Assembly: GCF_963676685.1 (NCBI RefSeq)
Contig: NC_092346.1
Coordinates: forward strand, 29,822,001 to 29,886,000
DNA: 64,000 nucleotides
Direction: 5' to 3'
From: Mytilus edulis
Taxonomy: Eukaryota
The position numbers and the translations under genes were made by a program. Below the pieces are notes generated by a model. The model was not told where the DNA came from. It did not search any database and worked only from the letters and a program-made list of their open reading frames with translations. How positions within the stretch are numbered: position 1 is the stretch's first letter; each line of letters begins with the position of its first letter. Below are positions 4,101-46,986 of the stretch, piece after piece.

Positions 4101-6177
4101 TAACCCATAACACAAATAACCGATGATAGTCCGTCGGAAGGGGACGATAAATGGCTGACCTGTGTGAAGAGAGAGCCATATCTCTTGCACGTTAAAGACA
4201 CCCTTGTAGATTTCGAAAAAAGAGGGGGCTAATGCCGCTACAAGGCAGCACTCGCACCCGCAAAGTGGAAAGGGATTAATATAAGTTGCAAAACTTGTTT
4301 CCCAATCCACTATAAATAAATATGTTTAAACTAAATAACCTTCCGACATCATCACAGCTACACATACATGTACATTTATATCTTGTCATATGTTTTAAAT
4401 TTCGATGCAATAACTTGTGACAACAATTAGTGTTTTAAATAATGGCACACTAATCTGCATACAAGTGTAAATTATTTATGTTCCAATAAATAATGAAAAT
4501 CAGACTGACTGGCACAACCCGCAATATGGCTCAAATTTATTATATTATACAGAGAAAATGGACCCATTGAGATATAGTCCGAGATTACTCTGACGTCCAA
4601 CAGCTGTTTTGCCAGACAAGCTGGGGCCGTGGGACATCAGAGCTCGTCCCATATCAAAAAGTGGATATTTGCCCGTCCAAAATAGATGCGCTGCTTCATC
4701 GCTTCGTCCCTTCGGGTGCCAACGGCCGGCCTTGGAATTATATAAATCAGGTATCAATTTGTTCATTTTTCATTTATCTCTTCATTTATGTAAGTTTCAC
4801 CTACCTGCCACCCTTTATTATCACATATTTAGACAGTTTTCACAGTGACCCACCGATTCTGGCATTTTGACTTTCATTTTGAAAGATTGTCATGTGATCA
4901 CGAGAAAAATGTAAGGCACAATGGACTATGGGAAATGATGTATGCATATGACCCTAGGTCAATTAGCCTGGGGTCCTGGCTAATCTTGTCAGTATAGCAA
5001 GGCGTGTATCAATAAACTGCCTGTTAATGATTGGTTAATACTAATTTTGTCGCGCAATGTTTGTTTAACATCTGTATCCAATCAGTTCTTGTTTAACATC
5101 AATTAGTAAAAATTAGACTGTAATTATTTTTCTTTATGAATTGATGTATAGTGTTATCATATCTAATTATTAGTATGATGATAATTAGTAAGCAGAAAAG
5201 GGTTAATTCTTATCAGCAATCGCCTGGTGAGAAAGTTAAAAGTTTAAGATTTCATATAACCAAGGTGTGAATTGGATTTCAATTTTGCTGGTTTACATCA
5301 AACATCAAATTTATGCAAATATTTATTCAGCCTCCCTTTAGATTCAGAGTCAACTGGCACTGAATCGATCACATGGTATTTGTTCCCCACCTGGCCCTTG
5401 CGATGCGCAGCTAGATTGGGCCGGTGTTCCAGGCTATAGGTCAATATGAATATATAATCTAACACCTCGCTCATTTACAATACAAGCAACGTCAATATCC
5501 GAGAGCTTCCGAATGTTAACGTGGTTGGTACTAAATGCTTAATACTGATCTCCTGTAAAGGAGGTGAAAAAAGTATAAATATTTGCATATTTGAGTCTCG
5601 AGGTCTCGTAACATGACGTCCATTTGAAAATAAAAGTAAAAATGTCTGAACCGATGGGTCACTGTGAAAACTGTCTAAGCATGAGAAAATAAAGGGTGGC
5701 AGGTAGGTGAAACATACATAAATGAAGAGATAAATGAAAAATGAACAAATTGATACCTGATTTATATAATTCCAAGGCCGTCCGTTGGCACCAGAAGCGA
5801 CGAAGCAGCGCATCTATTTTGGACGGGCAAATATCCACTTTTTGATATGGGACGAGCTCTGACGTCCCACGGCCCCAGCTTGTCTGGCAAAACAGCCGTT
5901 GGACGTCAGAGTAATCTCGGACTAATTGAGACATTGTTACTTTTGTACAATAGGGTGCATTTTAAACCTCAGTTTTGTCTTATGCTTTTTGAACCTTTCC
6001 TGAAAACTGAGTAAGTTCTGCCACCAATATTAGAGATTTAAAATGACATACAGGTTGAGAGCTGAGAGTTTATTTATGAACAGCAAGCAATATTACCTTC
6101 ATAAAGACATCTTTGTCAAAGCACAGAGACGCAGGACCACTAGGAAGTGGTACTGCTTTATTTGGGTCTCCTGTCAT
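1147..6177 (-). CDS. COG2: Conserved oligomeric Golgi complex subunit 2, exons 1-6 (3' part lies outside the window)
   Basis: Exons 6177-6097, 3744-3583, 2921-2856, 2246-2166, 1712-1624, 1252-1147; all GT-AG and phase-consistent. Translation MTGDPNKAVPLPSGPASLCFDKDVFMK/DGFDVDNFVMECRRRVPLETLRDDLNTYLKILRSAMIELINKDYADFVNLSTNL/VGMDKAITNLTVPLGEMKDQVM/.../LTGQLIERVANEFNKLQF matches the recognisable COG2 N-terminus (LCFDKD, ELINKDYADFVNLSTNLVGMDKA). Confidence 0.95.
4122..4332 (+). mobile_element. 5'-truncated SINE (Meta-domain-like core) in COG2 intron 1
   Basis: GTCCGTCGGAAGGGGACGATAAA...GCACGTTAAAGA core and AT-rich tail, flanked by the direct repeat AAATAACC (4114-4121 and 4333-4340). Confidence 0.6.
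4575..5924. mobile_element. Non-autonomous DNA transposon with ~330-bp TIRs and 9-bp TSD (AcademH-like)
   Basis: Termini TAGTCCGAGATTACTCTGACG...CGTCAGAGTAATCTCGGACTA; arms ~4575-4905 and ~5600-5924; TSD ATTGAGATA (4566-4574) / ATTGAGACA (5925-5933). No transposase ORF. Confidence 0.8.
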
Positions 6178-7186: not shown

Positions 7187-10100
7187 ATGGAGATAATTTG
7201 TTCATGTCATGAAGCTACCAGTAGAAGAGTAAAGCATATACAAGAGATTTGTACAGGAAAGGATATATCTGTAACTGTTAGGCAGTGTAGAGGTATGTAT
7301 TGTTAAGTTTTTTAAGTGGCAAAACTGTAATTTCAAATGTGTAGGTTTTTATTCCCCTTTTGCATGCTTTCTTTCTGTTCATATTTTCTAAATCTCTAAC
7401 AATGGAGTGTAAGAAAAAAATCTTATTTTTGGCATCTCTTTAAAAATCATTTGACAGAAATTGTGAAATAGTTTTGCAGATCATGATTTTGCCATATGTT
7501 CTATTGCTATTTTGTTTGCTATCTTGTCAATTACAGATTAACTCTATAAAAATTGCCTGGTCAAATTTAAACCAAACTTATTACAAAAAGTCCTTGCAAT
7601 ATACATGTTGAGCTGAAAATTTTGTATTTATAAAAGTAGTCACCTTTTTTTATAAGTAATGAATTATTTGGTCTCACAAAACATATACTTTTTTGTATTT
7701 TTTATTTATAGGAGTGATTATTTGTATTTTTACCAATAGCAAAATCAAACTTTATTTTTCAGGAATTGAAGATGCTAAAAAGTTGGAAGTAGATGTAAAT
7801 AAATGTTGTGTGCTCATACTAGATGATGAATTGGTTGACTTATTAGAAAGTTGTGGAAAACTTGTTGCCAAAATACTAAGTATGAATGGTGGATTTTAGA
7901 CTTGTAACAAGGGTGAATTATGGGAAAGGGCACTTATCATTTTATCCTTCAGTTTATTGGATGTTTATTGGTTATTCTCTTTTTCTTTTAATCAGATCTT
8001 CAGAAACGACCACTAACTATCATATTTTATTTACAGTGTTTAATTTAAACTCCCTTAATTTGCAATTAATTCTGAAAAAATCTTGAAAATGAAATTTAAA
8101 AGTGTTTACATCATTTCAAAACAGAGTTTATAAAGAAATGATTAGAAAAAGCACATATAAACCCTTCAAAGAGCTTTTTTTTATGAATATGGCCAATCAT
8201 CAATAGAACTGAGTAGCCTAACAACACAATGGAAAACCAATGAAAAGTCATCTAGATTCCAGTCTTCCAAGATAACAAAATTTATGAATCCAACCACATT
8301 TAGGCCCTGGGTACAACTTATATGTTATTTGTTTTAAAAAATATAAAGTAAAAATATATTTTCTGTCAATGCATGTACATGTACTATGATTTTTCCAGTC
8401 CTGAAAAGTAATTTTTATTAGCCTGCTTTCATTTGCTATATCGGAAATTTGAAATTGTTGCCAATTCTTAACTTTGATTCATTTTGATGATTGCTATCAA
8501 TATTAATTTGAAATTTCGCCGTATTGTGGTCTATTTTGACCTACAATCTATACTTTTCAGGGATGACATCCAAGCCTAACAAGTTGATATATTTCAAAGT
8601 TGTTACTGATGAAAAGATGGAAATGTTTGCAACTGACGAATGTGAATGGAGACGATGTGTTAACTCTGAGGAGGAACTGATCAAAATTTATACAACGAAA
8701 ATATGTAAATCTCCGACAGAGTCTGATGGTAGGTACAGAAAATATTTTAATGAAAAAAAAACGTTCAGTTCTTTTAAACATTAAATGATTTAATTTTAAT
8801 GTATGAAGAAATTTATGACCTGTATACCAGCAGTGAGAGATGAGAAAAATTTAAATGGAAACAGTAAGGAAGAATTTTAGATTTGAGTTCTGGTGTGGTG
8901 ATTTAGATATTGCTTTAAAATTGTTGTGTTGTTTATTTGTTGAAACTTATTCACAAGTTTTTGTTTTGAATTGAGGGAGTCAAAAAACGGCATAATTTAT
9001 CACAATTTTTTTTAAAGAAAAATGTACATTTAACAGTAAGGCCAAGGGATTTGCGTCATACCAATACATCTAGTTGATTATTACATCACCATGTTCCAAC
9101 TTTTTCTGTCATTTAAACATAGATTTATTTAAGAACAGAGTTGGGGTAAATGTTTTTGATTTTTTCATATGTTATATTCTTTCACAATTTCAGAAACAAC
9201 AAATACATGTCAAACAATGCAGTCACTGAGCTTGCAGAGTGCAGAGCCTTTGTCCAATTCGTCTTTTACAAATGAACCAGCTGTGAACCAGTCATTGAAA
9301 ATTACTCATGCAAGTATGTATCTGCAAAGTTTGTCAATATTGTGGATTCATCATTATTTGTTGGATATCAATCTCGAGGATCACAATAGATGAACCACAA
9401 ATTAGAAATGTTTCAACGAAGTATAAATTTAATTTATGCTTGTATGCAGACTATGGCAAAACAACTAAATCAAATATTCACAAAAATGGTACTTAGAAAT
9501 AGATAAATCCACAATGTAGTAACATTAAACAAGTGAATATCATGTTTTTGTAAAATTGGTTAATATTGTGTGTTATAAGTCTGATTATCTCCCTTGACTT
9601 TCTGGGAACTTTGTATTAATTTGTTTCAAAGAATAGAAATTTTTGGTGTCCATGTTGATTTGCATTTATTTTTGTAGGACCAGAAGCTGTAGAAAGTAGA
9701 CATTCATTCTCCAGTGGTGATGACAATCATGATGAGAAACAATGCCAGAATGACTTAAAAGGGCAAGCTGTGGAGGGAGATATTCAAAAGTCAAAGAGTG
9801 AACAAAATCTTGGTATGTTCATACATTTGATTAGCTGATATTGTGTGTAAATCTAGTACAATGCAGATTTGTATTCATGTCCCATTAACATTTATTTATG
9901 ATTTGCCACTGGACTCTATTAAAAGAGCCATCCTTTATCATCCTGATCACAGATGTCTAGTCAGTCAAACTTCATTACAGCTTCTTCAGTTCTGATGATT
10001 TTTGCATTAAATAGCAGTATCTGTTAGAAGATCAATAAGTTTTCCTAAAAATACATGTACATGTGTTGTCTACAATCTCATCTTCAAATTTTAAAACCAG

Positions 10101-13100
10101 AAAAAGCAAAGTCCATGTTTTGATATTGGAAACATCAAAAAATCATTCAGATCTCAAATTAAAATAGACAATACACAACACAATGTCCATTAGAAGAATC
10201 TGTACAATTTTGAGGGAATTTTGGTAAGCTATTTTAGTAGTTGTGGATTAATTAACTTACTGATACATTAAATGGGTTTTACTCATTGTTGAAGGTCTTA
10301 ATACCGTCTTATGGTGACCTGTAGTTGTTAATTTCTGTGTCATTTGGTGTCTTAGATTAAGCCGTTACATTTTGGATTACAATGATGTGCCATCAAACGG
10401 TAGATAAAATTGACGCAAATTCCTACTACATCATTTTTGATTGATTGCAGCACTTGAACTCTCTTCAATGTAGAGGTGAAAAAATAATTGTGTCTGTTGT
10501 TTTCAAATAGAAAAATATACGTTGAAATTTCAACATTTCAGCTAAAAGGATACCCAGGAATTTTTATTAGCAGATAAAGAACTTTGAAATTGTCACTAAA
10601 CATCATCCTATTTTTAGCTCACCTGGCCCGAAGGGCCAAGTGAGCTTTTCCCATCACTTGGTGTCCAGTCATGGGCGATGGAGTCTGGACGCCATGGCTA
10701 AAAATAGAACATAGGGGTAAAATGCAGTTTTTGGCTTATAACTCAAAAACCAAAGCATTTAGAGCAAATCTGACATGGGGTAAAATTGTTTATTAGGTCA
10801 AGATCTATCTGCCTTCAAATTTTCAGATGAATCCGACAACCTGTTATTGGGTTGCTGCCCCTGAACTGGTAATTTTAGGGAATTTTTGCTGTTTTTGGCT
10901 ATTATCTTGAATATTATTATAGATAGAGATAAACTGTAAACAGCAATAATGTTCAGCAAAGTAAGATTTACAAATAAGTCAACATGACCAAAATGGTCAG
11001 TTGACCCCTTTAGGAGTTATTGACCTTTATAGTCAATTTTTAATCATTTTTCGTAAATCTTAGTAATCTTTTACAAAAATCTTCTCCTTTGAAACTACTG
11101 GGCCAAATTAATCCAAACTGGGCCACAATCATCTTTGGGATATCTTGTTTGAAAAATGTGTGGCCTGACCCGGCCAACCAACCAAGATGGCCACCATGGC
11201 TAAAAATAGAACATAGGGGTAAAATGCAGTTTATGGCTTATAACTCAAAAACAAAGCTTTTAGAGCAAATCTGACATGCGGTAAAAGTGTTTATTAGGTC
11301 AAGATCTATCTGTCCTGATGTTTTCACATGGATCGGACAACCAGTTGTTAGGTTACTGTCCTGAATTGGTAATTTTAAGGAAATTTTGCCGTTTTTATAC
11401 GACCGCAAAAATTTTAATTTTTTGGTCGTATATTGCTATCACGTTGGCGTCGTCGTCGTCGTCGTCGTTGTTGTCCGAATACTTTTAGTTTTCGCACTCT
11501 AACTTTAGTAAAAGTGAATAGAAATCAATGAAATTTTAACACAAGGTTTATGACCACAAAAGGAAGGTCGGGATTGATTTTTGGAGTTGAGGTCACAACA
11601 GTTTATGAATTAGGGGCCAAAAAGGGGCCCAAATAAGCATTATTTTTGGTTTTCGCACAATAACTTTAGTATAAGTAAATAGAAATCCATGAAATTTATA
11701 CACAAGGTTTATGACCATAAAAGGAAGGTTTTATGACCACAAAAGGAAGGTTGGGTTTGATTTTGGGAGTTTTGGTCCCAACAGTTTAGGAATAAGGGGT
11801 CCAAAGGGTCCAAAATTGAACTTTGTGTGATTCATCAAAAATTGAATAATTGGGGTTCTTTGATATGTCGAATCTAACTATGTATGTAGATTCTTAATTT
11901 TTGGTCCCGTTTTCAAATTGGTCTACATTAAGGTCCAAAGGGTCCAAAATTAAACTTAGTTTGATTTTAACAAAAATTGAATCCTTGGAGTTCTTTGATA
12001 TGCTGAATTTAAAAATGTAATTAGATTTTTAATTATTGGCCTAGTTTTCAAGTTGGTCCAAATGGGGGTCCAAAATTATACTTTGTTTGATTTCATCAAA
12101 AATTGAATAAATGGGTTCTTTGATATGCCAAATCTAACTGTGTATGTAGATTCTTAATCTTTAGTCCAGTTTTCAAATTGGTCTACATTAAGGTCCAAAG
12201 GGTCCAAAATTAAACTAAGTTTGATTTTAACAAAAATTAAATTCTTTGGCTTATTTGATATGCTTTATCTAAATATGTACTTTGATTTTTGATTATGGGC
12301 CCAGTTTTCAAGTTGGTCCAAATCAGGATTCCATATCAAGTATTGTGCAATAGCAAGATATTTTCAATTGCACAGTATTGTGCAATAGCAATTAATTTTC
12401 AATTGGAGTTATCTTTCTTTGTATAGAATAGTAGTTGATAATATATGTTGGAAATTTGCCAGACATGACTATGATGTCATTTTGTATTTTTATTTGCCAA
12501 TAACTTTATGTAAATAACTTCATTGGAAATTTGCCAATATAAAATGTTGCTGATGAAGCTTTTTTTCCTTATCTTATCTAAAATGTTTTTAGATAATGTA
12601 TGTTGGACATTTGCCAGACATGACTATGATGTCATTTTCTATTTTTATTTGCCAATAACTTTATGTAAATAACTTCATTGGAAATTTGCCAATATAAAAT
12701 GTTGCTGATGAAGTTTTTTTTATTGTTTTATACAATAAACAATGTATATTCACTTTTACTACCAACCAATCTTTACCATTCAGTGATAACAAGCACTTTA
12801 TTTTACATTTTAATATTTTATGATGTATTTAAAAGAGTTGTTATTGTTGCAAACTCCATTAGAAATTTGAATTGATATCAGTTTTGAAAAAAGGGAAACG
12901 GGGATGTGAAAAAAAAGGGGGAGGGGGTTTAAATTTTTCTCATTTCAGATTTCATAAATAAAAAGAAAATTTCTTCAAACATTTTTTTGAGAAGATTAAT
13001 ATTCAACAGCATAGTGAATTGCTCAAAGGCAATAAAAAAACTTTTAAGTTCATTAGACCACATTCATTCTGTGTCAGAAACCTATGCTGTGTCAACTATT

Positions 13101-16100
13101 TCATTTTAAATTTAAAAAGTTTGAAGAAGAAATCTTTAATTGATTTGTAAAATCTTGACATTTGTTTTGTGTAAAACAAAACCATGTAATGTCAAAAATT
13201 TGATCACAATCCAAATTCAGAGCTGTATCACGCTTGAATGTTTTGTCCATACTTGCCCCAACTGTTCAGGGTTCGACCTCTGCGGTCGTATAAAGCTGTG
13301 CCCTGTGGAGCACCTGGTTTGTTATTATCTTGAATATTATTATAGATAGAGATAAACTGTATACAGCAATAACATTCAGCAAAATAAGATCTACAAATAA
13401 GTTTGCATGACCAAAATAGTCAATTGACCCCTTAAGGAGTTATTGCCCTTTATAGTTAATTTTTATACGACCGCAAAAATTTTAATTTTTTGGTCGTATA
13501 TTGCTATCACGTTGGCTTCGTCGTCTGCGTCGTCGTCATCGTCGTCGTCGTCCGAATACTTTTAGTTTTCGCACTCTAACTTTAGTAAAAGTGAATAGAA
13601 ATCAATGAAATTTAAACACAAGGTTTATGACCACAAAAGGAAGGTTGGGATTGATTTTGGGAGTTTTGGTCCCAACATTTTAGGAATTAAGGGCCAAAAA
13701 TGGTCCAAATAAGCATTTTCTTTGTTTTCGCACTATAACTTTAGTTTAAGTGAATAGAAATCTATGAAATTTTGACACAAGGTTTATGACCACAAAAGGA
13801 AGGTTGGGATTGATTTTGGGAGTTTTGGTTCCAACAGTTTAGGAATTAAGGGCCAAAAAAGGGCCCAAATAAGCATTATTCTTGGTTTTCGCACTATAAC
13901 TTTAGTATAAGTATATAGAAATCAATGAAATTTTAACACAAGGTTTATGACCATAAAAGGAAGGTTGGGTTTAATTTTGGGAGTTTTGGTCCTAACAGTT
14001 TAGGAATAAGGGGCCCAAAGGGTCCAAAATTGAACTTTGTGTGATTTCATCAAAAATTGAATAATTGGGGTTCTTTGATATGCCGAATCTAACTATGTAT
14101 GTAGATTCTTAATTTTTGGTCCCGTTTTCAAATTGGTCTACATTAAGGTCCAAAGGGTCCAAAATTAAACTTAGTTTGATTTTAACAAAAATTGAATCCT
14201 CGGGGTTCTTTGATATGCTGAATTTAAAAATGTACTTAGATTTTTAATTATTGGCCTAGTTTTCAAGTTGGTCCAAATGGGGGTCCAAAATTAAACTTTG
14301 TTTGATTTCATCAAAAATTGAATCAATGGGTTCTTTGATATGCCAAATCTAACTGTGTATGTAGATTCTTAATTTTTGGTCCAGTTTTCAAATTGGTCTA
14401 CATTAAGGTCCAAAGGGTCCAAAATTAAACTAAGTTTGATTTTAACAAAAATTAAATTCTTGGGCTTATTTGATATGCTTTATCTAAATATGTACTTTGA
14501 TTTTTGATTATGGGCCCAGTTTTCAAGTTGGTCCAAATCAGGATTCCATATCAAGTATTGTGCAATAGCAAGATATTTTCAATTGCACAGTATTGCACAA
14601 TAGCAAGAAATATCTAATTGCACAATATTGTGCAATAGCAATTAATTTTCAATTGGAGTTATCTTTCTTTGTATAGAATAGTTGATAATATATGTTGGAA
14701 ATTTGCCAGACATGACTATGATGTCATTTTGTATTTTTATTTGCCAATAACTTTATGTAAATAACTTCATTGGAAATTTGCCAATATAAAATGTTGCTGA
14801 TGAAGCTTTTTTTCCTTATCTTATCTAAAATGTTTTTATACGACCGCAAAATTTGAAAAAAATTTCGTCGTATATTGCTATCACGTTGGCGTCGGCGTTG
14901 TCGTCGTCGTCCTGCGTCCGAATACTTTTAGTTTTCGCACTCTAACTTTAGTAAAAGTGAATAGAAATCTATGAAATTTAAACACAAGGTTTATGACCAC
15001 AAAAGGAAGGTTGGGATTGATTTTGGGAGTTTTGGTCCCAACATTTTAGGAATTAGGGGCCAAAAAGGGCCCAAATAAGCATTTTCTTGGTTTTCGCACT
15101 ATAACTTTAGTTGAAGTGAATAGAAATCTATGAAATTTTGACACAAGGTTTATGACCACTAAAGAAAGGTTGGGATTGATTTTGGGAGTTTTGGTTCCAA
15201 CAGTTTAGGAATTAGGGGCCAAAAAAGGGCCCAAATAAGCATTATAACCTTGGTTTTTGCACAATAACTTTAGTTTAAGTAAATAGAAATCAATGAAATT
15301 TAAACACAATGTTTATGACCACAAAAGGAAGGTTGGTATTGATTTTGGGAGTTTTGGTCCCAACAGTTTAGGAATAAAGGGCCCAAAGGGTCCAAAATTA
15401 AACTTTGTTTGATTTCATCAAAAATTGAATAATTGGGGTTCTTTGATATGCCGAATCTAACTGTGTATGTAGATTCTTAATTTTTGGTCCCGTTTTCAAA
15501 TTGGTCTACATTAAGGTCCAAAGGGTCCAAAATTAAACTTGGTTTGATTTTAACAAAAATTGAATCCTTGGGGTTCTTTGATATGCTGAATCTAAAAATG
15601 TACTTAGATTTTTAATTATTGGCCCAGTTTTCAAGTTGGTCCAAATCGGGGTCCAAAATTAAACTTTGTTTGATTTCATCAAAAATTGAATAATTGGGGT
15701 TCTTTGATATGCCAAATCTAACTGTGTATGTAGATTCTTAATTTTTGGTCCCGTTTTAAAATTGGTCTACATTAAAGTCCAAAGGGTCCAAAATTAAACT
15801 AATTTTGATTTTAACAAAAATTGAATTCTTGGGACTCTTTGATATGCTGAATCTAAACATGTACTTAGATTTTTGATTATAGGCCCAGTTTTCAAGTTGG
15901 TCCAAATCAGGATCCAAAATTATTATATTAAGTATTGTGCAATAGCAAGAAATTTTCAATTGCACGGTATTCAGCAATAGCAAGAAATCTTCAATTGCAC
16001 AGTATTGTGCAATAGCAAGAAATCTTCAATTGCACAGTATTGTGCAATAGCAAATATTTTCAATTGCACAGTATTGCACAATAGCAAGAAATATCTAATT

Positions 16101-19100
16101 GCAAAATATTGTGCAATAGCAAGAAATTCCAATTGGATTTCAATTGGAGTTATCTTTCTTTGTCCAGAATAGTAGTTGAATCAACTTAAATCATTGTTTT
16201 ATACAATATACAATGTATATTCACTTTTACTACCAACTGATAGATTAAAACAATCTTTACCATTTAGTAATAACAAGCACTTTTTTTACATTTTAATATT
16301 TTATGATGTATTTAAATGAGTAGTTATTGTTGCAAACTTCATTAGAAATTTGAATTGAGATCAGTTTTGAAATAAGGGAAAGGGGGATGTGAAAAAAAAA
16401 TTTGGGGGTCAATTTTTTTCATTTCAGATTTCATAAATAAAAAGAAAATTTCTTCAAACATTTTTTTGAGAGGATTAATATTCAACAGCATAGTGAATTG
16501 TTCAAAGGCAAACATATTTTTTTTAAGTTCATTAGACCACATTCATTCTGTGTCAGAAACCTATGCTTTGTCAACTATTTAATCACAATCCAAATTTAGA
16601 GCTGAATCCAGCTTGAATGTTGTGTCCATACTTGCCCCAACCGTTCAGGGTTCAACCTCTGCGGTCGTATAAAGCTGCGCCCTGCGGAGCATCTGGTTAG
16701 ATAATGTATGTTGGACATTTGCCAGACATGACTATGATGTCATTTTCTATTTTTATTTGCCAATAACTTTATGTAAATAACTTCATTGGAAATTTGCCAA
16801 TATAAAATGTTGCTGATGAAGTTTTTTTTATTGTTTTATACAATAAACAATGTATATTCACTTTTACTACCAACCAATCTTTACCATTCAGTGATAACAA
16901 GCACTTTATTTTACATTTTAATATTTTATGATGTATTTGAAAGAGTAGTTATTGTTGCAAACTCCATTAGAAATTTGAATTGATATCAGTTTTGGAAAAA
17001 GGGAAACGGGGATGTGATAAAAAAAGGGGGGGGTTAAATTTTTCTCATTTCAGATTTCATAAATAAAAAGAAAATTTCTTCAAACATTTTTTTTAGAGGG
17101 TTAATATTCCACAGCATAGTGAATTGCTCAAAGGCAAAAAAAACTTTTAAGTTCATTAGACCACATTCATTCTGTGTCAGAAACCTATGCTGTGTCAACT
17201 ATTTGATTTTAGATTTAAAAAGTTTGAAGAAGAAATCTTTAATTGATTTGTAAAATCTTGACATTTGTTTTGTGTAAAAAAAAAAACATGTAATGTCAAA
17301 AATTTGATCACAATCCAAATTCAGAGCTGTATCATGCTTGAATGTTTTGTCCATACTTGCCCCAACTGTTCAGGGTTCGACCTCTGCGGTCGTATAAAGC
17401 TGCGCCCTGCGGAGCACCTGGTTAACATTTTTCATAAATTTTTGTAAATTTGTAGAAAATATTTTTCACTGTAATTACTGGGCCAAGTTCATTATAGACA
17501 GAGATAATTGTAGCAACAAGAATGTTCAGTAAAGTTAGATCTACAAACACATCACTATCACCAAAACACAGTTATGTCATAAATTTATCCGTGTCCATTA
17601 TTTAATATGCACAAGACCAAGGTGAGCGACACAGGCTCTTTAGAGCCTCTAGTTTTTTAGGAGAATCGTTTTTGCACAATCGGTTTGTGGCAATTGTTTA
17701 TTTACATTTTCTACATTTACACGTCATCATCTTAAAGGTGCTTTTTGACTGGATGCAGTCAGGTACAATTGCAACTAATGAATATCATTACCTCATGGGT
17801 CCTAAATTCTATCAGCCATGGGTGGTCCCCGTGGAGAGAAAGGGACTAGATTGTAACCATTGGCTAGCAAAGATGTAAATGCATATATGTAAATTAAGTT
17901 TTCATATTTTTTTTCAGGTTTCTCAGTTAGTTTACCAGAAAACAAAAAGAATAATAATGAACACAAAGAAGACAGGAAAAGTTTACCAAATGATTTACAG
18001 AGTTTTTCTACAAACAACTTATATCCAAGGTTGAGTGGAATGTCATCATATGTTGAAGCTGGAATGTCATATGGCAATGCACAGTCACATAGCAATTTGC
18101 CAACACATTGTCATTTAGAGTCACACAGTCAATTACAGTCCCCAACCCTTAATAGACCATTACAACCTTGGTCTTCTATGAATGGATGTAGCTTTAACTC
18201 ATCTGGTCCTCAAGCTTTGACTTGTCAGAGTGGCCAGGGGTACAGTTGTCGTTGCGGTTCATGCCAAACGCTGCATCAACACTCTGCAAGTTTTCCTCAG
18301 TTCCATACCTTACAGCCAAAATCTATAGCAGGCAGTTCCACTGGCAGACCTGATACAACCAATAACATGAACTTTAGACCAGAGATAATTGCCATCAACA
18401 GAGGTTTTAGACCAACATATAGTCCTAATATACAGACAGATGGATCAGGTTTGCAAATTAGCATTTTAAAACAACTGCATTCTGGGTAATCCTTTCAATT
18501 TGAGTAAAAATAATTAAAATTGTGATTGTTGATAAACAGTATATAGGTACAGTGAAATTAAAGCCAATGACATGGCATTTTTTGAATCAGTGTAATATAC
18601 TTCAAGTGAGATTTGCAACTCGATTAAAAGGCTTGATTATTTTCTTGAAATATCATATGGGTCTTTCATTATTTTTGCACACTACTTTTCACCTTCTGAT
18701 ATATTTCTTATGCTGTAAGATTTTCCTATGTATTTTCGAAATTGTTTAGATAATCTTAAAATTAAGAATGAAAGATAATAGGTATCTTACAAAAAATAGT
18801 AATAAATCAAACGTAATTTGTTCAAATTAACTGTGTTTTTGTCAATGTTTTTTTTTTTAAAGAATTGTAAAGGAAGGACAGAGAAAGTACATGTAATCAA
18901 ATATCTTAGTTAACTAGCTCTGTAAATTCATAAAGAATAGCGCCTTCCTCTTATTAAGAAAAAAATATGTTTTTGTTTCTTATTTCAGATAACAGGACCT
19001 TTTCATGTGACCAATGTGGACATTCTGTTATCCCAAAACATGAAATGGTAATTATTCATAGTCGTTTATAACACTTTATTGCAATTGTTCTCTTCAACCA

Positions 19101-40331: not shown

Positions 40332-40840
40332 ATAAAATTGAGAATGGAAATGGGGAATGTGTCAAAGAGACAACAACCCGCCCAAATAAAAAACAACAGC
40401 AGAGGGTCACCAACAGGTCTTCAATGTAGCGAGAAATTCCCGCACCCGGAGGCGTCCTTCAGCTGGCCCCTAAACAAATATATACTAGTCCAGTGATAAT
40501 GAACGCCATACTAATTTCCAAATTGTACACAAGAAACTAAAATTAAAATAATACAAGACTAACAAAGGCCAGAGGCTCCTGACTTGGGACAGGCGCAAAA
40601 ATGCGGCGGGGTTAAACATGTTTGTGAGATCTCAACCCCCCCCCCCCCCCCTATACCTCTAACCAATGTAGTAAAGTAAACGCATAACAATACGCACATT
40701 AAAATTCAGTTCAAGAGAAATCCGAGTCTGATGTCAGAAGATGTAACCAAAGAAAATAAACAAAATCACAATAATACATAAATAACAACAGACTACTAGC
40801 AGTTAACTGACATGCCAGCTCCAGACTTCAACTAAACTTC
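40332..40840 (+). repeat. Abundant interspersed repeat, young-looking copy
   Basis: Matches 32486-32890 (reverse) and fragments at ~41931-42010 and ~42780-42930. Confidence 0.8.
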
Positions 40841-41043
40841 AAGATGTCCATTATCGGATTTCGATGCTTTTTACAAATATATTGTCATTTGCAACGTTAT
40901 TAATTGAAAATTTAGATTAGTTGCATGCTAAATTGGGCTTTTCCGTAATTGTACTTTAACTTTACAAAACAGCTACATAGTTTTTGATAATTTGCGTAGT
41001 CAAAACGACTTCCTTTTCAAAGAAATAAAATGTCTTACAAGTT

Positions 41044-44000
41044 CACTGTGTATCATCGCCACCGGAAATTGGGTACTAACGAAGCGGAGAGAAATAGAAA
41101 AAAAAGTAAACAAGTTAAGAATTCATTCAATTTAGAGCATTTCCACTCATTGGATGAGGGTGCCGCTTAAGAAATGATTTTCTGATATATAATTCTTTAA
41201 ATTATTAGGCAGATAAGTACAAAATTGATACAAGATTTTGTGTAATACTCCAAAACTTGCCACTTAGTACCGGAAAATTTCGAGGTCGATCGTCCTCTGT
41301 CGCCCCATTCTCAAGATATTGAACTGTTTTTCATTATTTTTCCAGACACGTTTTTAGATTATTATAGTGTGGCATCATATTTACTGAAATTTGTTGTCAA
41401 AAAGATGTATTTTAAAGAATATAGACCATGAAAAATAAAATCTAGTGTACGGCAACTTGCTCGTGTTGACAAATTTACTGTATGGCAACTTGTTTTTAGC
41501 TGTATGGCAACTTGCTAATTTTAGAATAGTTATTTACCGTCCTTTCAAAGAAAATAAAGTATTAAGTTCAAATATCTAAGGGGTGGGGGAGGGGGGGGGG
41601 GGTCCTTTTTAATTTAAACTGTTTTTGTCTTTTTCAAGGTTTTAATTTGTTTGAAACTGTTATTTGACTGATAAATTTAAAAACCCTTAACTGTTCGACC
41701 CACTGTCTGTAATCTGTTTTGTTAAAATTTGCAATGTTGTTAACTGTTTATTTGAAATTGAGATTCCAGTTATCTGTTACTTAATACTTAAGTGTTCACT
41801 GTTTTTGACATTATTTTCTCTGTTAACTGATCTTAACTGTAATTTACAAGAATCACATGCAAATTTGCTGTCCATTCCTTTTTTACGTTGCTTCCTCAAA
41901 GTAAAAAATCTTTGAGTATAGTAAATCCTTGATAAAATTGAGAATGGAAATGAGGAAAATGTCGACGAAACAGAAGCCCGACCAAATAGAAGAAACTACT
42001 CAACGCAACGAGAAGATTATTCACTAGGATGGGGTGTCAATTCACAGATAGGAAAAAACTTAGAATTGACACTCATAATTTTTAAACACCCTCTTTCACT
42101 TCCTTCCTAATAAATAAGGCTTACTATTTGAGTTATGCATGTGTATATTTATGGAAAGAGAATCGTCCATAGATTTAATTTCCAATAGTAATAATTGTGA
42201 AATATAATCTTTTTTTGTGTAACCATGGCAACAATCAGCATTTATTTGATACCAAATATTGCAAGATAGGGGGTTGAACATGTCACAAAGATCTCAAAAA
42301 TTTGGTCCAAAGGAAAATGTCAATCAATAAGAGTGAAACCTTTCCTGAAACCATAGACATATATCTATCAAAAGGTAAAACAAAATATATGCATTTCTGC
42401 ATTTTTTTCCATAAAATTGAATTGAAAAGATCGAGCGTCAAATCTTTGTTGAAAAACAATACAAATTTTTTAAATTTATGGCGGTACGGATAGGAACGTA
42501 TGGACGTTCAAACTGTAAAATGGCTTCTAAAACATGTTAAAAACAATCTAAACGTTCATATAAACCCACTAGGAAGGCTATATTATTATTCAACTATCTA
42601 AAAATCAATTCAATTGTACAAAAACTTTCATATTTAGAAAATTCACCATGGCTATAATGCGAAACTAAACTTGTAACTGTGTATTGATATACCCGAAGCT
42701 GTCTCCTAAGTGAGCAATCATTTAACTACAAAAAGGGGGTAGAAGTTCAATGTTTGTTTCTTGAAACATATAAATGAACCAAAATTTAAAAAATGAAATA
42801 AATACAAGACTATATAAAAATGTAACAAAGGTTACAGACTCAAGTTGGGTCATGCAGGTGCAACAAATGCGGCAGTGTTAAACATGTTTAGAGATATATC
42901 GTACCCCTCTTTATACGTCTAACCAATGTAGTTATATCTGCCTTCTATTTGTTATGTATCAAAAATGTTAAAAGGAAAGGCCACTTCTTATCCAGCTAAA
43001 ACCCTGGTCAGTCCTATGAAGAAAATAATTCAGAAGTATGTGGAATGTTTGATAAGTAATATTGACCCTGAGTACCTGGACGGAATCGTGAAATATAAAG
43101 TACCTTTACATTTTGCAATTCGTAAAATAACTGAACAGTGTGGCCTGGTAGAAGAGGCCGGAAAATGAGGACTTAGTTCTCAAATTGATGTCAAATTTGC
43201 TAGTCTAAGACTTCAGAAATGTAAAGATGGACCAAGGCTTTTTTTTATATCAGTTCAGAGTTCTTAGTTGCATGGGACTTGGAGATGAAAGAGCGCTTCA
43301 ACTTGTGACACCTTACATGTTACTTTCTGATTTATACACTGGTTTTGATGATTTAAAATAAAAATGAGTAAACCTTCGTAATTCCTTTTAATAAAATCAT
43401 GTAAGCAATGAGTCGTATGAATACCCTGACTGAGATGTAACCATAATTTAAAAGAGCTACCGCCATAAAAAAAAATTATGTTCACGCCCTATAGTATTCA
43501 CTCATTCTAACTGTTTGTTACACTTTCCTACGTCATGATGATAACCCAAGTTTACTACGACTGATTGACATAAAACATTTACTCAACAATATACATAACC
43601 AGAAGAAGCCTCCCTTTTGCTGTTTGGAGCATTTTCGATTATTCATGACATAGTCCTTTTTCTTGGAGTCGATCACTCCGTCTGCTTTTCCATCCGTTCA
43701 ATTGTCTGTCCATGTGTCAATAAAAAAAATATGGTACTTGCCACAGGCACTTGTTTCAGAAAAAAAAATTCCTATATACCTTAATACAGGAATTTTTTTT
43801 TCTGAGACAAGTGCCTGTGGTACTTGCATGTGATGGATAGTTATCTTATTTGCAATCATACCACATCTCCACTGTTTTTATCTAAAAAAAAAAAAAAGCT
43901 AGCACCAACAAAAGAGGAATGGACGGTTTATTTTATTGAACTTATACAATTCAACCTAACAACAAATAAGACAACAGTCGTTAGTAGCATAACGATATAT

Positions 44001-44697
44001 AAATGTATTTAGGATAATATGGTTGAAAAAAACCATTTTGTACAAAATCGAAAAGTGGTACGCAACGAGGCCTTCTGAACTGAATTAACGGCATATATTT
44101 AATAATATTTGATAAGTAAGACATTTTGTATATTTGTAAGCCTGTAAAGCTTTGATATCAACAAAATATCGTCACTTGATATTATTTAAACAGTGATTAA
44201 TTTCCTCTTAAAATTATAATATATTGCAAGACGCCGTACAGACAAAAGTTGTTATTTTGCAATTCGCCGTACAACGTTCTGCAATTCGCCGTACAACAAA
44301 CAAACAATGTTTTTGTCCATATTCTTTAAAAAACATGTTTTTGACAATAAATTTCAGTAAATATGATGCCACACTATAATAATCTAAAAACGTGTCTGGA
44401 AAAATAATGAAAAACAGTTCAATATCTTGAGAATGGGGCGACAGAGGACGATCGACCTCGAAATTTTCCGGTACTAAGTGGCAAGTTTTGGAGTATTACA
44501 CACAATCTTGTATTAATTTTGTACTTATCTGCCTAATAATTTAAAGAATTATATATCAGAAAATCATTTCTTAAGCGGCACCCTCATCCAATAAGTGGAA
44601 ATGCTCTAAATTGAATGAATTCTTAACTTGTTTACTTTTTTTTCTATTTCTCTCCGCTTCGTTAGTACCCAATTTCCGGTGGCGATGATACACAGTG
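41044..44697. mobile_element. Non-autonomous Transib/RAG-like DNA transposon (3654 bp)
   Basis: ~380-bp TIRs (41044-~41426 and ~44316-44697) with only a few mismatches; both ends read 5'-CACTGTG; perfect 5-bp TSD AAGTT (41039-41043, 44698-44702); three subterminal TGTAYGGC..(T)TGC motifs inside each TIR. Confidence 0.85.
43742..43819. mobile_element. 78-bp palindromic MITE with 8-bp TSD (P- or hAT-type) nested in the Transib-like element
   Basis: CACAGGCACTTGT.TCAGAAAAAAAAATTCCT arm and its reverse complement; TSD GTACTTGC (43734-43741, 43820-43827). Confidence 0.8.
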
Positions 44698-46986
44698 AAG
44701 TTTGTCCACTGGACGATTTTGATACGTTTTTAACGTTGTCGATTCGGGTACGCTATTTATGGTGGAACATCTGTATATATTTCCTCAGGTAGAATTTTCT
44801 TGATAGTTAGATATTATCAACAAGATCACAAAGTATAAAAAAAAATCCGATGACTTGGGTTGTTTGTTTCGATGAGGTTCTTAAGTTGTGAAAAAGTTTT
44901 GTATCACGGGAGGATAAAAAAATAATCTTTTTCAAATTTGAGAAGCGTAAAACTGAGATTTGTTTGTTTATTTCTCTGCAATAAGATTGTATAGAACTTG
45001 AAAGCGAAAATAAAATTGGGCCTAAAGCGTGGCTATATATATACCTCTCCACATCATACAAAGCTTTTAAACATGCGAGATGAATTATCCCAAATAATCA
45101 TTAATCGCCGTAAAAGGTACGCACTTACCAAATATATTTATCCTCTTATTCATAAGAAGAAAGAAAATCGGAATATAAAAAATCTTAACTTTTTTCAAGC
45201 AGTCACTGAACCATGCATGGAAAAAGGGAAAAAAACAATGGACATCATGATAACAGACGAAAACTTCATAAAATAAGGCATCTATATACAAAGTATGGAG
45301 GATACAGATCTTCTGAAATATAAGTTTTGAAGAGGTTAGCTGACACCGCCGCCACCTGAATACTATCTCTATGTCGAGCTTTCTGCGACAAAAGTTGCAG
45401 GCTTGACATAATCGTTATCAAAGGGCTACAACACTCATGCCGAGAAGTCGAATTTCGAACATGCAGACTTATTTGAAGAACATGTCTAGCTGATCACGTT
45501 TATACAAAGACGTAAATATACGTCCTTGCGTTTACAATTTAAAGTTTCTTTCTATCTATTAAAGTTATCAAGATAATAGGCAAACATGAAGCAAATGGTA
45601 AAATGTGTTATTAAGGAAACTTGCCCCTATTAGAAGACGTCTGATAGTTTGACATATAAGGACAATTGATAAAGTTCACTTTCTAAACATTAGCCCGTGT
45701 CAAATATTGTCTATTTATACCAGTTTTCAAAATACATTGTGCGTAATAGGCAAAAATTGCATTTTATGATCTATTTTTAGCCAAATCAGCCATCTTAGTT
45801 AAGGGGTCATCGAACTGGATACCCCAATGGTGAATGTGGCCAAGTTACATTGAGGACAGTAGTTCGATTAGAACATTTTTGTAAAAGTCGACGACGACGG
45901 ACGACGGACGCCAAGCGATATGAAAAACTTTTGGTTAGCTATAAAACGTTAAATTTAGAAAATGCTAGCAGAATAAATTGATACAACCGTTTTACCTTGA
46001 AACCATGGCAGATTTTTGTATACATAGATGAAGCTTACTAATTATACTATTCGTAATAGAAATACACTCTGATACGTATAGTCGTCTGGCATTTTTTATT
46101 ACATAACCTGGAACTATTATACTTACTATAATAGTCCCAGACATAACTAAGACAACATGGTTATAACTGGGACACAATATTTTAGTTTAAGATCAGATCA
46201 TGTTTATTATAGACTCAAAAGATCGATAAAAAATGTACATGACACAAACTATTTTGTTTAAGCAGAAAACAATGGTAAAATATTTACGTGGTTTGAATAT
46301 AAAGGTTATTTAAAAGCTGAATCACAATTGTCAAAGGGAGATTGTCCTATTTAATTCGATCCACTTCAACGAATTCATGTTATGTGTAATTCATAAGAAA
46401 AGGAAAGTAGAATACTTAACATTATAAAGGTAAATATGCTAATGCATGCCAAAGTTGAAACGAAAGCTTATTTGGAAGGAAATAAAATAGCCCGGTAACA
46501 AAAAATTTAGTATACATCACATTTAAACAAATTAATGAGAAAAGGAGTTATACGTTAGCATTTTGCCAATATGGCTGTCATATTTATGATTACTGGTATC
46601 CAGGTAACAATAGATAGGTCTTCACCGGGGAAGTATGCATTTACCATATTTGTAGTTATTGGTAGGGGCCCATGCTAGTACTGCTTAGTAGGCCCTTATT
46701 ATCATTTTGTTTTTTTACCTTTTTGTTTATTTTTTGTTGTTTGTTTTACCAGAGACATATATACTCATTAACAAATTTTCACTTGTATTTTTTTTTTAAA
46801 ATGATGATTTAATCAATAAAATGAAGGTTCATCCAAGGATTTGTATACTAGTAGTACATCTTGGTTCATCCTAACAAAATTAATGAATGAACAAATATGA
46901 TTGTATATACCTCAAAAGTCACACTCATCCAGATAAACCTGTGCAGATGGGAATATTCTAAACGGTCTACTAGTAGAATTTTTATT

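Follow-up and report, generated by a model that had tools for sequence, protein, structure and literature searches.

Which transposase moves the transposable element at positions 41044-44697 of a 64,000-nucleotide stretch of Mytilus edulis DNA (NC_092346.1, positions 29,822,001 to 29,886,000; hereafter the window)? The element begins with CACTGTG and ends with CACAGTG. In view of these heptamer-like ends and a 5-bp target-site duplication (TSD), a sequence-only reading had ascribed it to a Transib/RAG-like transposase encoded elsewhere. The window element was found to share both ends with a 14-kb transposon of the same genome, and with a probability of roughly 0.85 it is moved in trans by the predicted P-fold transposase of that transposon, into which a lambda-type exonuclease is inserted. 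This reading is carried by the shared ends, the copy number, the 5-bp TSDs, the two-gene layout, the D-D-(DxxH)-E and exonuclease motifs and a spliced transcript contig.

The window element and its family

The window element was inserted in an older dispersed host repeat, the left part of which (40840-41043) is 90-93% and the right part (44703-45088) 82-90% identical to its paralogues. The paralogues are uninterrupted and carry a single AAGTT in seven of the seven fetched (40 were scored), whereas the window element is flanked by AAGTT on both sides (41039-41043 and 44698-44702). The duplication and the boundaries of the element are thereby proven, and the arrangement AAGTT-CACTGTG...CACAGTG-AAGTT given by the sequence-only reading was confirmed. 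A boundary 2 bp further out (TT-CAC...GTG-AA) was rejected, since CAC forms the terminus of other copies and the extent of the TSD is set by the empty sites.

The terminal inverted repeats (TIRs) at 41044-41426 (forward strand, beginning CACTGTGTATCATCGCCACC) and 44315-44697 (reverse strand) align without gaps over 383 bp with seven mismatches (98.2% identity). Only positions 105, 184 and 195 are mismatched in the outer 349 bp, in good agreement with the earlier estimate of about 380 bp and about three outer mismatches. The motif TCGCCA, noted before as following soon after the heptamer, occupies TIR positions 13-18. All 30 TIR loci that were fetched had sharp termini.

The first 20 bp of the TIR were found 289 times as exact matches in the 1.37-Gb genome (144 forward and 145 reverse; 0 for the reversed control), which gives a family size of about 145 copies. 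Fifty-one regions were examined, 33 from the 40 best TIR matches, a choice biased towards young copies, and 18 that were long or unpaired within the first 100 ends listed. A duplicate copy on a scaffold was removed; 39 regions were two-ended and 12 were not. Together with the window element and two autonomous copies this resulted in 42 paired copies, and a perfect 5-bp TSD was observed in 37 of them. The five exceptions were two TSDs with a single mismatch, one of 7 bp, one copy without a TSD and one in which 2 bp of the TIR tip were deleted and the 5-bp repeat was kept. The TSDs of the family have a GC content of 23% and show a symmetric A-T-N-A-T tendency. Copy lengths range from 0.4 to 8.5 kb, centred on a form of about 4.2 kb with a common interior. 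Among these passenger copies the TIRs differ by 5.5% on average, and their divergence from the autonomous TIRs is 10%. Mobility of the family in mussels appears to be recent, and the window element is an ordinary passenger copy. Two miniature derivatives of 693 bp (L073) and 411 bp (L074) each have a perfect 5-bp TSD; one TIR and a few terminal bases of the other end therefore sufficed for their movement.

The full-length partner

A 16.2-kb copy with long open reading frames (ORFs) and the TSD ATAGT was found at G000:C2:104006089-104022297. A second near-full copy of 13.9 kb, at C5:94.7 Mb, is 98.6-99.2% identical to it, and the length of the element is about 14 kb. The left 536 bp of the window element (41044-41579, forward strand) are 91% identical to the left end of this partner, the outermost 52 bp being identical, and its right part of about 860 bp (43846-44697, forward strand) is 83-85% identical to the right end. 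Unrelated filler lies between the two arms. The sequence-only reading was right in taking the window element for a non-autonomous cut-and-paste element that has moved recently, has 5-bp TSDs and depends on a transposase encoded elsewhere. Among the long copies checked for coding capacity, a transposase was present only in the one at C2:104.0 Mb, and the extra length was mostly due to inserted retroelement or other repeat fragments. KolobokP-like ORFs adjoining a truncated TIR were taken as a separate element and not as the partner; this element (L034:467-5634) has a DDE ORF between two His-Me-finger-like ORF copies (compare PMC9587614).

In both the window and the autonomous forms, three repeats of the type TGTAYGGC(A/G)A lie directly internal to each TIR. 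In the window element they are located at 41446-41514 (forward strand, at positions equal to those of the autonomous element) and, inverted, at 44230-44293 (reverse strand); the homology on the left side ends shortly beyond them. These subterminal repeats are candidate protein-binding sites. Between the left and right TIRs of the autonomous element the difference is 0.3%. Both TIRs of the window element depart from both TIRs of the autonomous element at 29 positions, whereas an inherited difference between left and right was seen at one. The two TIRs of one element therefore change in concert, as conversion or repair between the ends would produce.

Encoded proteins

ORF1 of the partner encodes a protein of about 1,550 aa in two exons, and the nearest database protein, labelled Mytilus edulis, is 99% identical to it. 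From the N-terminus, ORF1 contains a CxxC...HxxxxH finger, the first catalytic aspartate (D1, CVDGKK), a coiled region, a YqaJ exonuclease and the second aspartate (D2, SYDGQ), followed by a variable linker, a DxxH motif (DVHH), a helical domain and the glutamate (EIENFFG). ORF2 lies on the opposite strand, convergent to ORF1, and encodes a six-finger C2H2 protein. The sequence-only reading had proposed to look for RAG1L, RAG2L or Transib ORFs in the longest copy; the coding copy at C2:104.0 Mb carries this predicted P-fold transposase with its inserted YqaJ domain and the C2H2 gene.

An AlphaFold model of 1,200 residues of ORF1 had a mean predicted local distance difference test score (pLDDT) of 81.7 and a predicted template modelling score (pTM) of 0.70. 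The Drosophila P transposase (6P5A/6PE2) was the first-ranked Foldseek match of the model, and the structural alignment (Z 29.7, root-mean-square deviation 2.7 Å, 317 residues) covers the RNase H core and the helical insertion domain. Values for other transposases were much lower: Z 13.5 (4.7 Å) for HzTransib, 11.5 for RAG1, 10.3 for BbRAG1L and 9.7 for Hermes. The exonuclease domain aligns with lambda-type exonucleases (Z 15, 2.5 Å, 169 residues); its Pfam match to YqaJ has an E-value of 4e-10, and an alignment to LHK-Exo was also obtained. In a Pfam search of 38 members, YqaJ was matched in 28, and TNP-like_RNaseH_N in 17, weakly and below the cut-off (best E 2e-5). In the ESM Atlas the C-terminal part of ORF1 was grouped with TNP-like_GBD clusters (0.97/0.95), with a recognition score under the reliability mark. 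The partner proteins gave neither a RAG1 Pfam match nor a RAG1 sequence match in the PDB. A genome search with the RAG1 profile PF12940 resulted in 0 candidates; its control was also silent, so this search is uninformative on absence. A fold search with the N-terminal 337 aa of ORF1 was likewise uninformative (best Z 4.5, model pTM 0.28).

Related families and the Transib/RAG alternative

The D2 region of ORF1 gave 49 matches in the genome, of which 21 were fetched with flanks. A convergent multi-C2H2 ORF was present at all 21 loci. Thirteen had TIRs starting with CA(C/A) and a perfect 5-bp TSD, one had a TSD of 6 bp, four had TIRs without a TSD and three had no terminal pair. TIR lengths range from about 50 to 480 bp and element lengths from 5.6 to 16 kb. 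One sister family (G000:C14 39.90 Mb, L131/L132), with the TIR CACCGTGTATCATCAG, a length of 5.6 kb and a 5-bp TSD, has a truncated transposase that is 64% identical in the D2 region.

A profile from D2 to E recovered 1,972 representatives at 50% identity. Among the best 150 of these, the YqaJ domain lies between D1 and D2 in 51 of the 51 proteins that span both. The first aspartate was conserved in 49/49, the second in 110/112, DxxH in 147/147 and the glutamate in 127/129; for the exonuclease residues the numbers were 83/85 (D), 82/85 (E) and 82/85 (K). Named relatives among 30 that were looked up belong to Mytilus, Pinctada, Batillaria, Owenia and Branchiostoma, so that bivalves, a gastropod, an annelid and amphioxus are represented. 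Fourteen related loci were found in metagenome contigs, each too short to show TIRs, and four of them had a downstream C2H2 ORF.

Could a Transib/RAG-like transposase elsewhere still mobilise the window element, the P-like element merely having the same ends? The ends start with CAC, and CACTGTG matches the heptamer of the recombination signal sequence (RSS) at 6/7 and the Transib consensus at 5/7 bases. The TSD of 5 bp, the two convergent genes and a distant fold kinship of the ORF1 model (Z 10-13.5) are further likenesses, and RAG-like (RAGL) elements are reported from some bivalves (PMC7204232). However, these ends belong to a coding element without a RAG1L/RAG2L ORF. At twelve other loci of the clade, an enzyme of this type goes with different TIR sequences and a perfect 5-bp TSD. 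The model of the transposase is P-like, and the second gene is a C2H2 array and not the kelch and PHD protein RAG2L. No RSS nonamer is present: at 23 bp into the window TIR only 3/9 bases match. TIR positions 8-10 are TAT, whereas protostome RAGL TIRs are described as carrying AAA there (PMC7204232). ProtoRAG TR5 is given as GCCATCTTG, 27/31 bp from the heptamer (PMC8289069); the TCGCCA region matches it at 5/9 bases, and GCCA lies only 7 bp past the heptamer. The mussel family has long symmetric TIRs and AT-rich targets, in contrast to the GC-rich preference reported for Transib/RAG (PMC1131882). A mollusc-wide survey reports a single Transib (PMC10294476). A Transib/RAG-like mobilising enzyme is thus very improbable, and the RSS-like ends and 5-bp TSD arose in this lineage without RAG.

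Relation to canonical P elements

As a control, canonical P elements were fetched from 18 other loci of the genome. One family with five copies has 607-bp TIRs starting with CACAGG and 8-bp TSDs in 5/5; of the remainder, one had a 7-bp TSD, and in 12 no pair of ends was seen within 10 kb. It is therefore not unusual for P-type elements of the mussel genome to have CAC ends and long TIRs, and it is the 5-bp TSD that marks the exonuclease clade. The family with 8-bp TSDs (G000:C5:65212024-65220181, L186; also L185, L187, L201 and L202) is 8.15 kb long with near-perfect TIRs and at least 10 equal-scoring copies, and it is probably active. Its convergent ORF of 1,091 aa contains GQAGTGKT and is presumably a Pif1 helicase. 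Related pairs of helicase and P genes were seen at L192 and L195.

A different classification would place the lineage outside the P superfamily, as a separate superfamily of the P/hAT/MULE/Kolobok (C/DxxH) group that has a P fold. The TSD of 5 bp instead of 7-8 bp, an insert of about 450 residues after the first catalytic strand and a sequence similarity to canonical P near noise fit such a placement. No THAP domain was matched in the N-terminal 345 aa of ORF1 or in the 38 members, the motif found there being CxxC...HxxxxH. Of the eight guanosine triphosphate (GTP) contacts of P transposase, mapped onto ORF1 by motif, S409 alone is kept (30/31); F443 is replaced by Y, N447 by D, D528 by L and K400 by S, and K385, V401 and D444 vary. 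The use of GTP has likely been lost or altered in the ORF1 transposase. On the other hand, the model gives a Z-score for P more than double that for any other transposase, helical insertion domain included. Weak profile alignments have D1 and D2 in P register and reach the helix-turn-helix (HTH) region of P, and the canonical P families of this genome likewise have CA ends, long TIRs and convergent accessory genes. Separate superfamily status is possible, though doubtful.

Several points weigh against a P-fold transposase as the enzyme of the window element. The assignment to P rests on a predicted model and motifs, and at the sequence level the kinship to P is faint. A profile of the clade misses the P transposase 6P5A in the PDB at E<=10, whereas the canonical P profile of the same genome finds it at 3e-26. 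Alignment of the clade and P profiles by hhalign gave probabilities of only 3% and 20%, although D1 and D2 were in register and the alignment extended into the HTH region. The GTP-site mapping was made by hand, and what the exonuclease and the zinc-finger protein do is conjectural. A divergence of about 10% separates the passenger TIRs from those of the present autonomous copies, so the passengers may have been spread by a relative of the present enzyme. In this assembly both near-full copies are interrupted: the C2 copy has a stop and a high-copy insertion of 2,117 bp, and the C5 copy, which has no TSD, has a 4-bp frameshift. The intact gene was not spanned by any single contig of the sequencing runs. 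In favour of the partner, contigs of runs X1 and X4 (taken to be DNA) and X15 (RNA) pass over the insertion and do not have the stop, and the listed pieces from X1 and X4 are without a gap where C5 has its frameshift. A contig of X12 (taken to be RNA) joins 7885 to 8757, which corresponds to the predicted intron spliced out. An uninterrupted, spliced version of the partner gene thus probably exists in other animals. The 2,117-bp insertion itself (L067:2475-4591) has a very high copy number, inverted ends and a 3-bp (TTA) duplication, and looks like a non-autonomous PIF/Harbinger-type element.

Possible mechanism

By analogy with P (PMC7776569), the DDE core would cut at the CAC ends and join them to the target with a 5-nt stagger, favouring AT-rich A-T-N-A-T sites. 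The C2H2 protein and/or the N-terminal zinc finger of ORF1 may bind the three subterminal motifs at each end, replacing THAP. Lambda-type exonucleases degrade DNA in the 5'->3' direction starting at 5'-phosphate ends. The exonuclease could trim the 5' strands and make those 3' extensions of the transposon ends that P obtains by its 17-nt staggered cut. Alternatively, its substrate could be the donor break; after resection there, the element would be copied back by gap repair, with a rise in copy number. Abortive gap repair would then lead to filler-containing derivatives such as the window copy, and to TIRs that change jointly at both ends.

The exonuclease could also be a conserved passenger that serves some purpose other than strand transfer, such as clearing excised DNA or damping host DNA sensing, and the DDE core alone would then transpose as in P. 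YqaJ-type nucleases are described as recurrent accessories in ISL2EU and KolobokE (PMC4482050, PMC9587614), and P transposase is reported to need no second nuclease (PMC7776569). In the mussel clade, however, the nuclease is built into the catalytic domain with its catalytic residues intact in nearly all relatives, which suggests action at DNA ends. A passenger role is considered unlikely.

Interior and surroundings of the window element

The sequence-only reading had described the interior as old repeat debris. Three short patches do match unrelated repeats, but the interior as a whole is co-amplified with the ends, at about 88-97% identity between copies across kilobase stretches; for one segment, 150 matches were scored from 210 candidates in the genome. 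The filler between the arms (41580-43845) is non-coding and unrelated to the autonomous element. Nine of its 43 ORFs of at least 40 aa were tested, and none had a Pfam match above the cut-off. A captured host gene was rejected on this ground and because one ORF matched family copies only (150 scored).

One of the three patches is a nested hairpin mini-element of 78 bp, CACAGG...CCTGTG (43742-43819), flanked by the 8-bp duplication GTACTTGC (43734-43741 and 43820-43827). It was found in 12 of 42 other copies (10 exact, two with a variant end), and copies without it have about 650 bp extra in its place. The window copy is thus a member of the subfamily bearing the mini-element. The ends of the mini-element resemble those of the helicase-bearing P family with 8-bp TSDs.

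The GC content of the window is 32%. At 4575-5924 there is a further TIR element, about 1.35 kb long and with arms of some 310 bp, and at 10746-17459 a cluster of long direct repeats with units of 35, 160 and 260 bp.

Implications

The partner lineage is apparently an undescribed, widespread P-like group with RAG-like hallmarks. In the literature searched, which left out Repbase, Dfam, supplements and subscription journals, where the lineage may be catalogued, neither YqaJ nor a 5-bp TSD was found described for a P-like element. Nor is such a group named among the curated families of a bivalve survey (PMC10294476). Tentatively, it could be an animal lineage of superfamily level, extending from molluscs and annelids to amphioxus, in which a P-fold transposase has a working exonuclease inside its RNase H core, THAP and GTP have been dropped and ends are recognized by a separate zinc-finger protein. 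RSS-like ends, a 5-bp TSD and the convergent two-gene layout would then have been reached independently of RAG.

CAC ends with a 5-bp TSD are a widely used signature of Transib/RAG ancestors. Since a P-fold enzyme can yield it too, elements of invertebrate genomes can be misassigned when TIRs are the only criterion, and this applies to the search for RAG relics as well. An exonuclease inside a transposase core also offers a direct test of the role of the YqaJ nuclease in several transposon groups, and the same architecture bears on why P needs GTP and a 17-nt overhang.

Comparison with P elements and other YqaJ-carrying transposons

The mussel element resembles the P superfamily (Drosophila P, Galileo and THAP9) in its predicted fold, its D-D-DxxH-E signature and its CA...TG ends, and Galileo also in its long TIRs (PMC4168063). 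It differs in the shorter TSD, in the lack of a detected THAP domain, in the YqaJ exonuclease inserted between D1 and D2 of a protein of about 1,550 aa, and in a separate convergent C2H2 gene within elements of 5.6-16 kb. In sequence it has next to nothing in common with canonical P. P transposase is described as making a 17-nt staggered cleavage and requiring GTP, with eight listed GTP contacts (PMC7776569), most of which are replaced here according to the hand mapping.

ISL2EU (PHIS) and KolobokE carry an accessory nuclease of the same YqaJ-type family, to which the descriptions assign no function (PMC4482050, PMC9587614). The nuclease of ISL2EU is a separate ORF in an element with an AT TSD and GG ends (PMC4482050). 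Compared with the AT or TTAA TSDs and GG or RR ends of ISL2EU and KolobokE, the mussel element has CAC ends and a 5-bp TSD of variable sequence, and its nuclease is located inside the predicted P-fold core.

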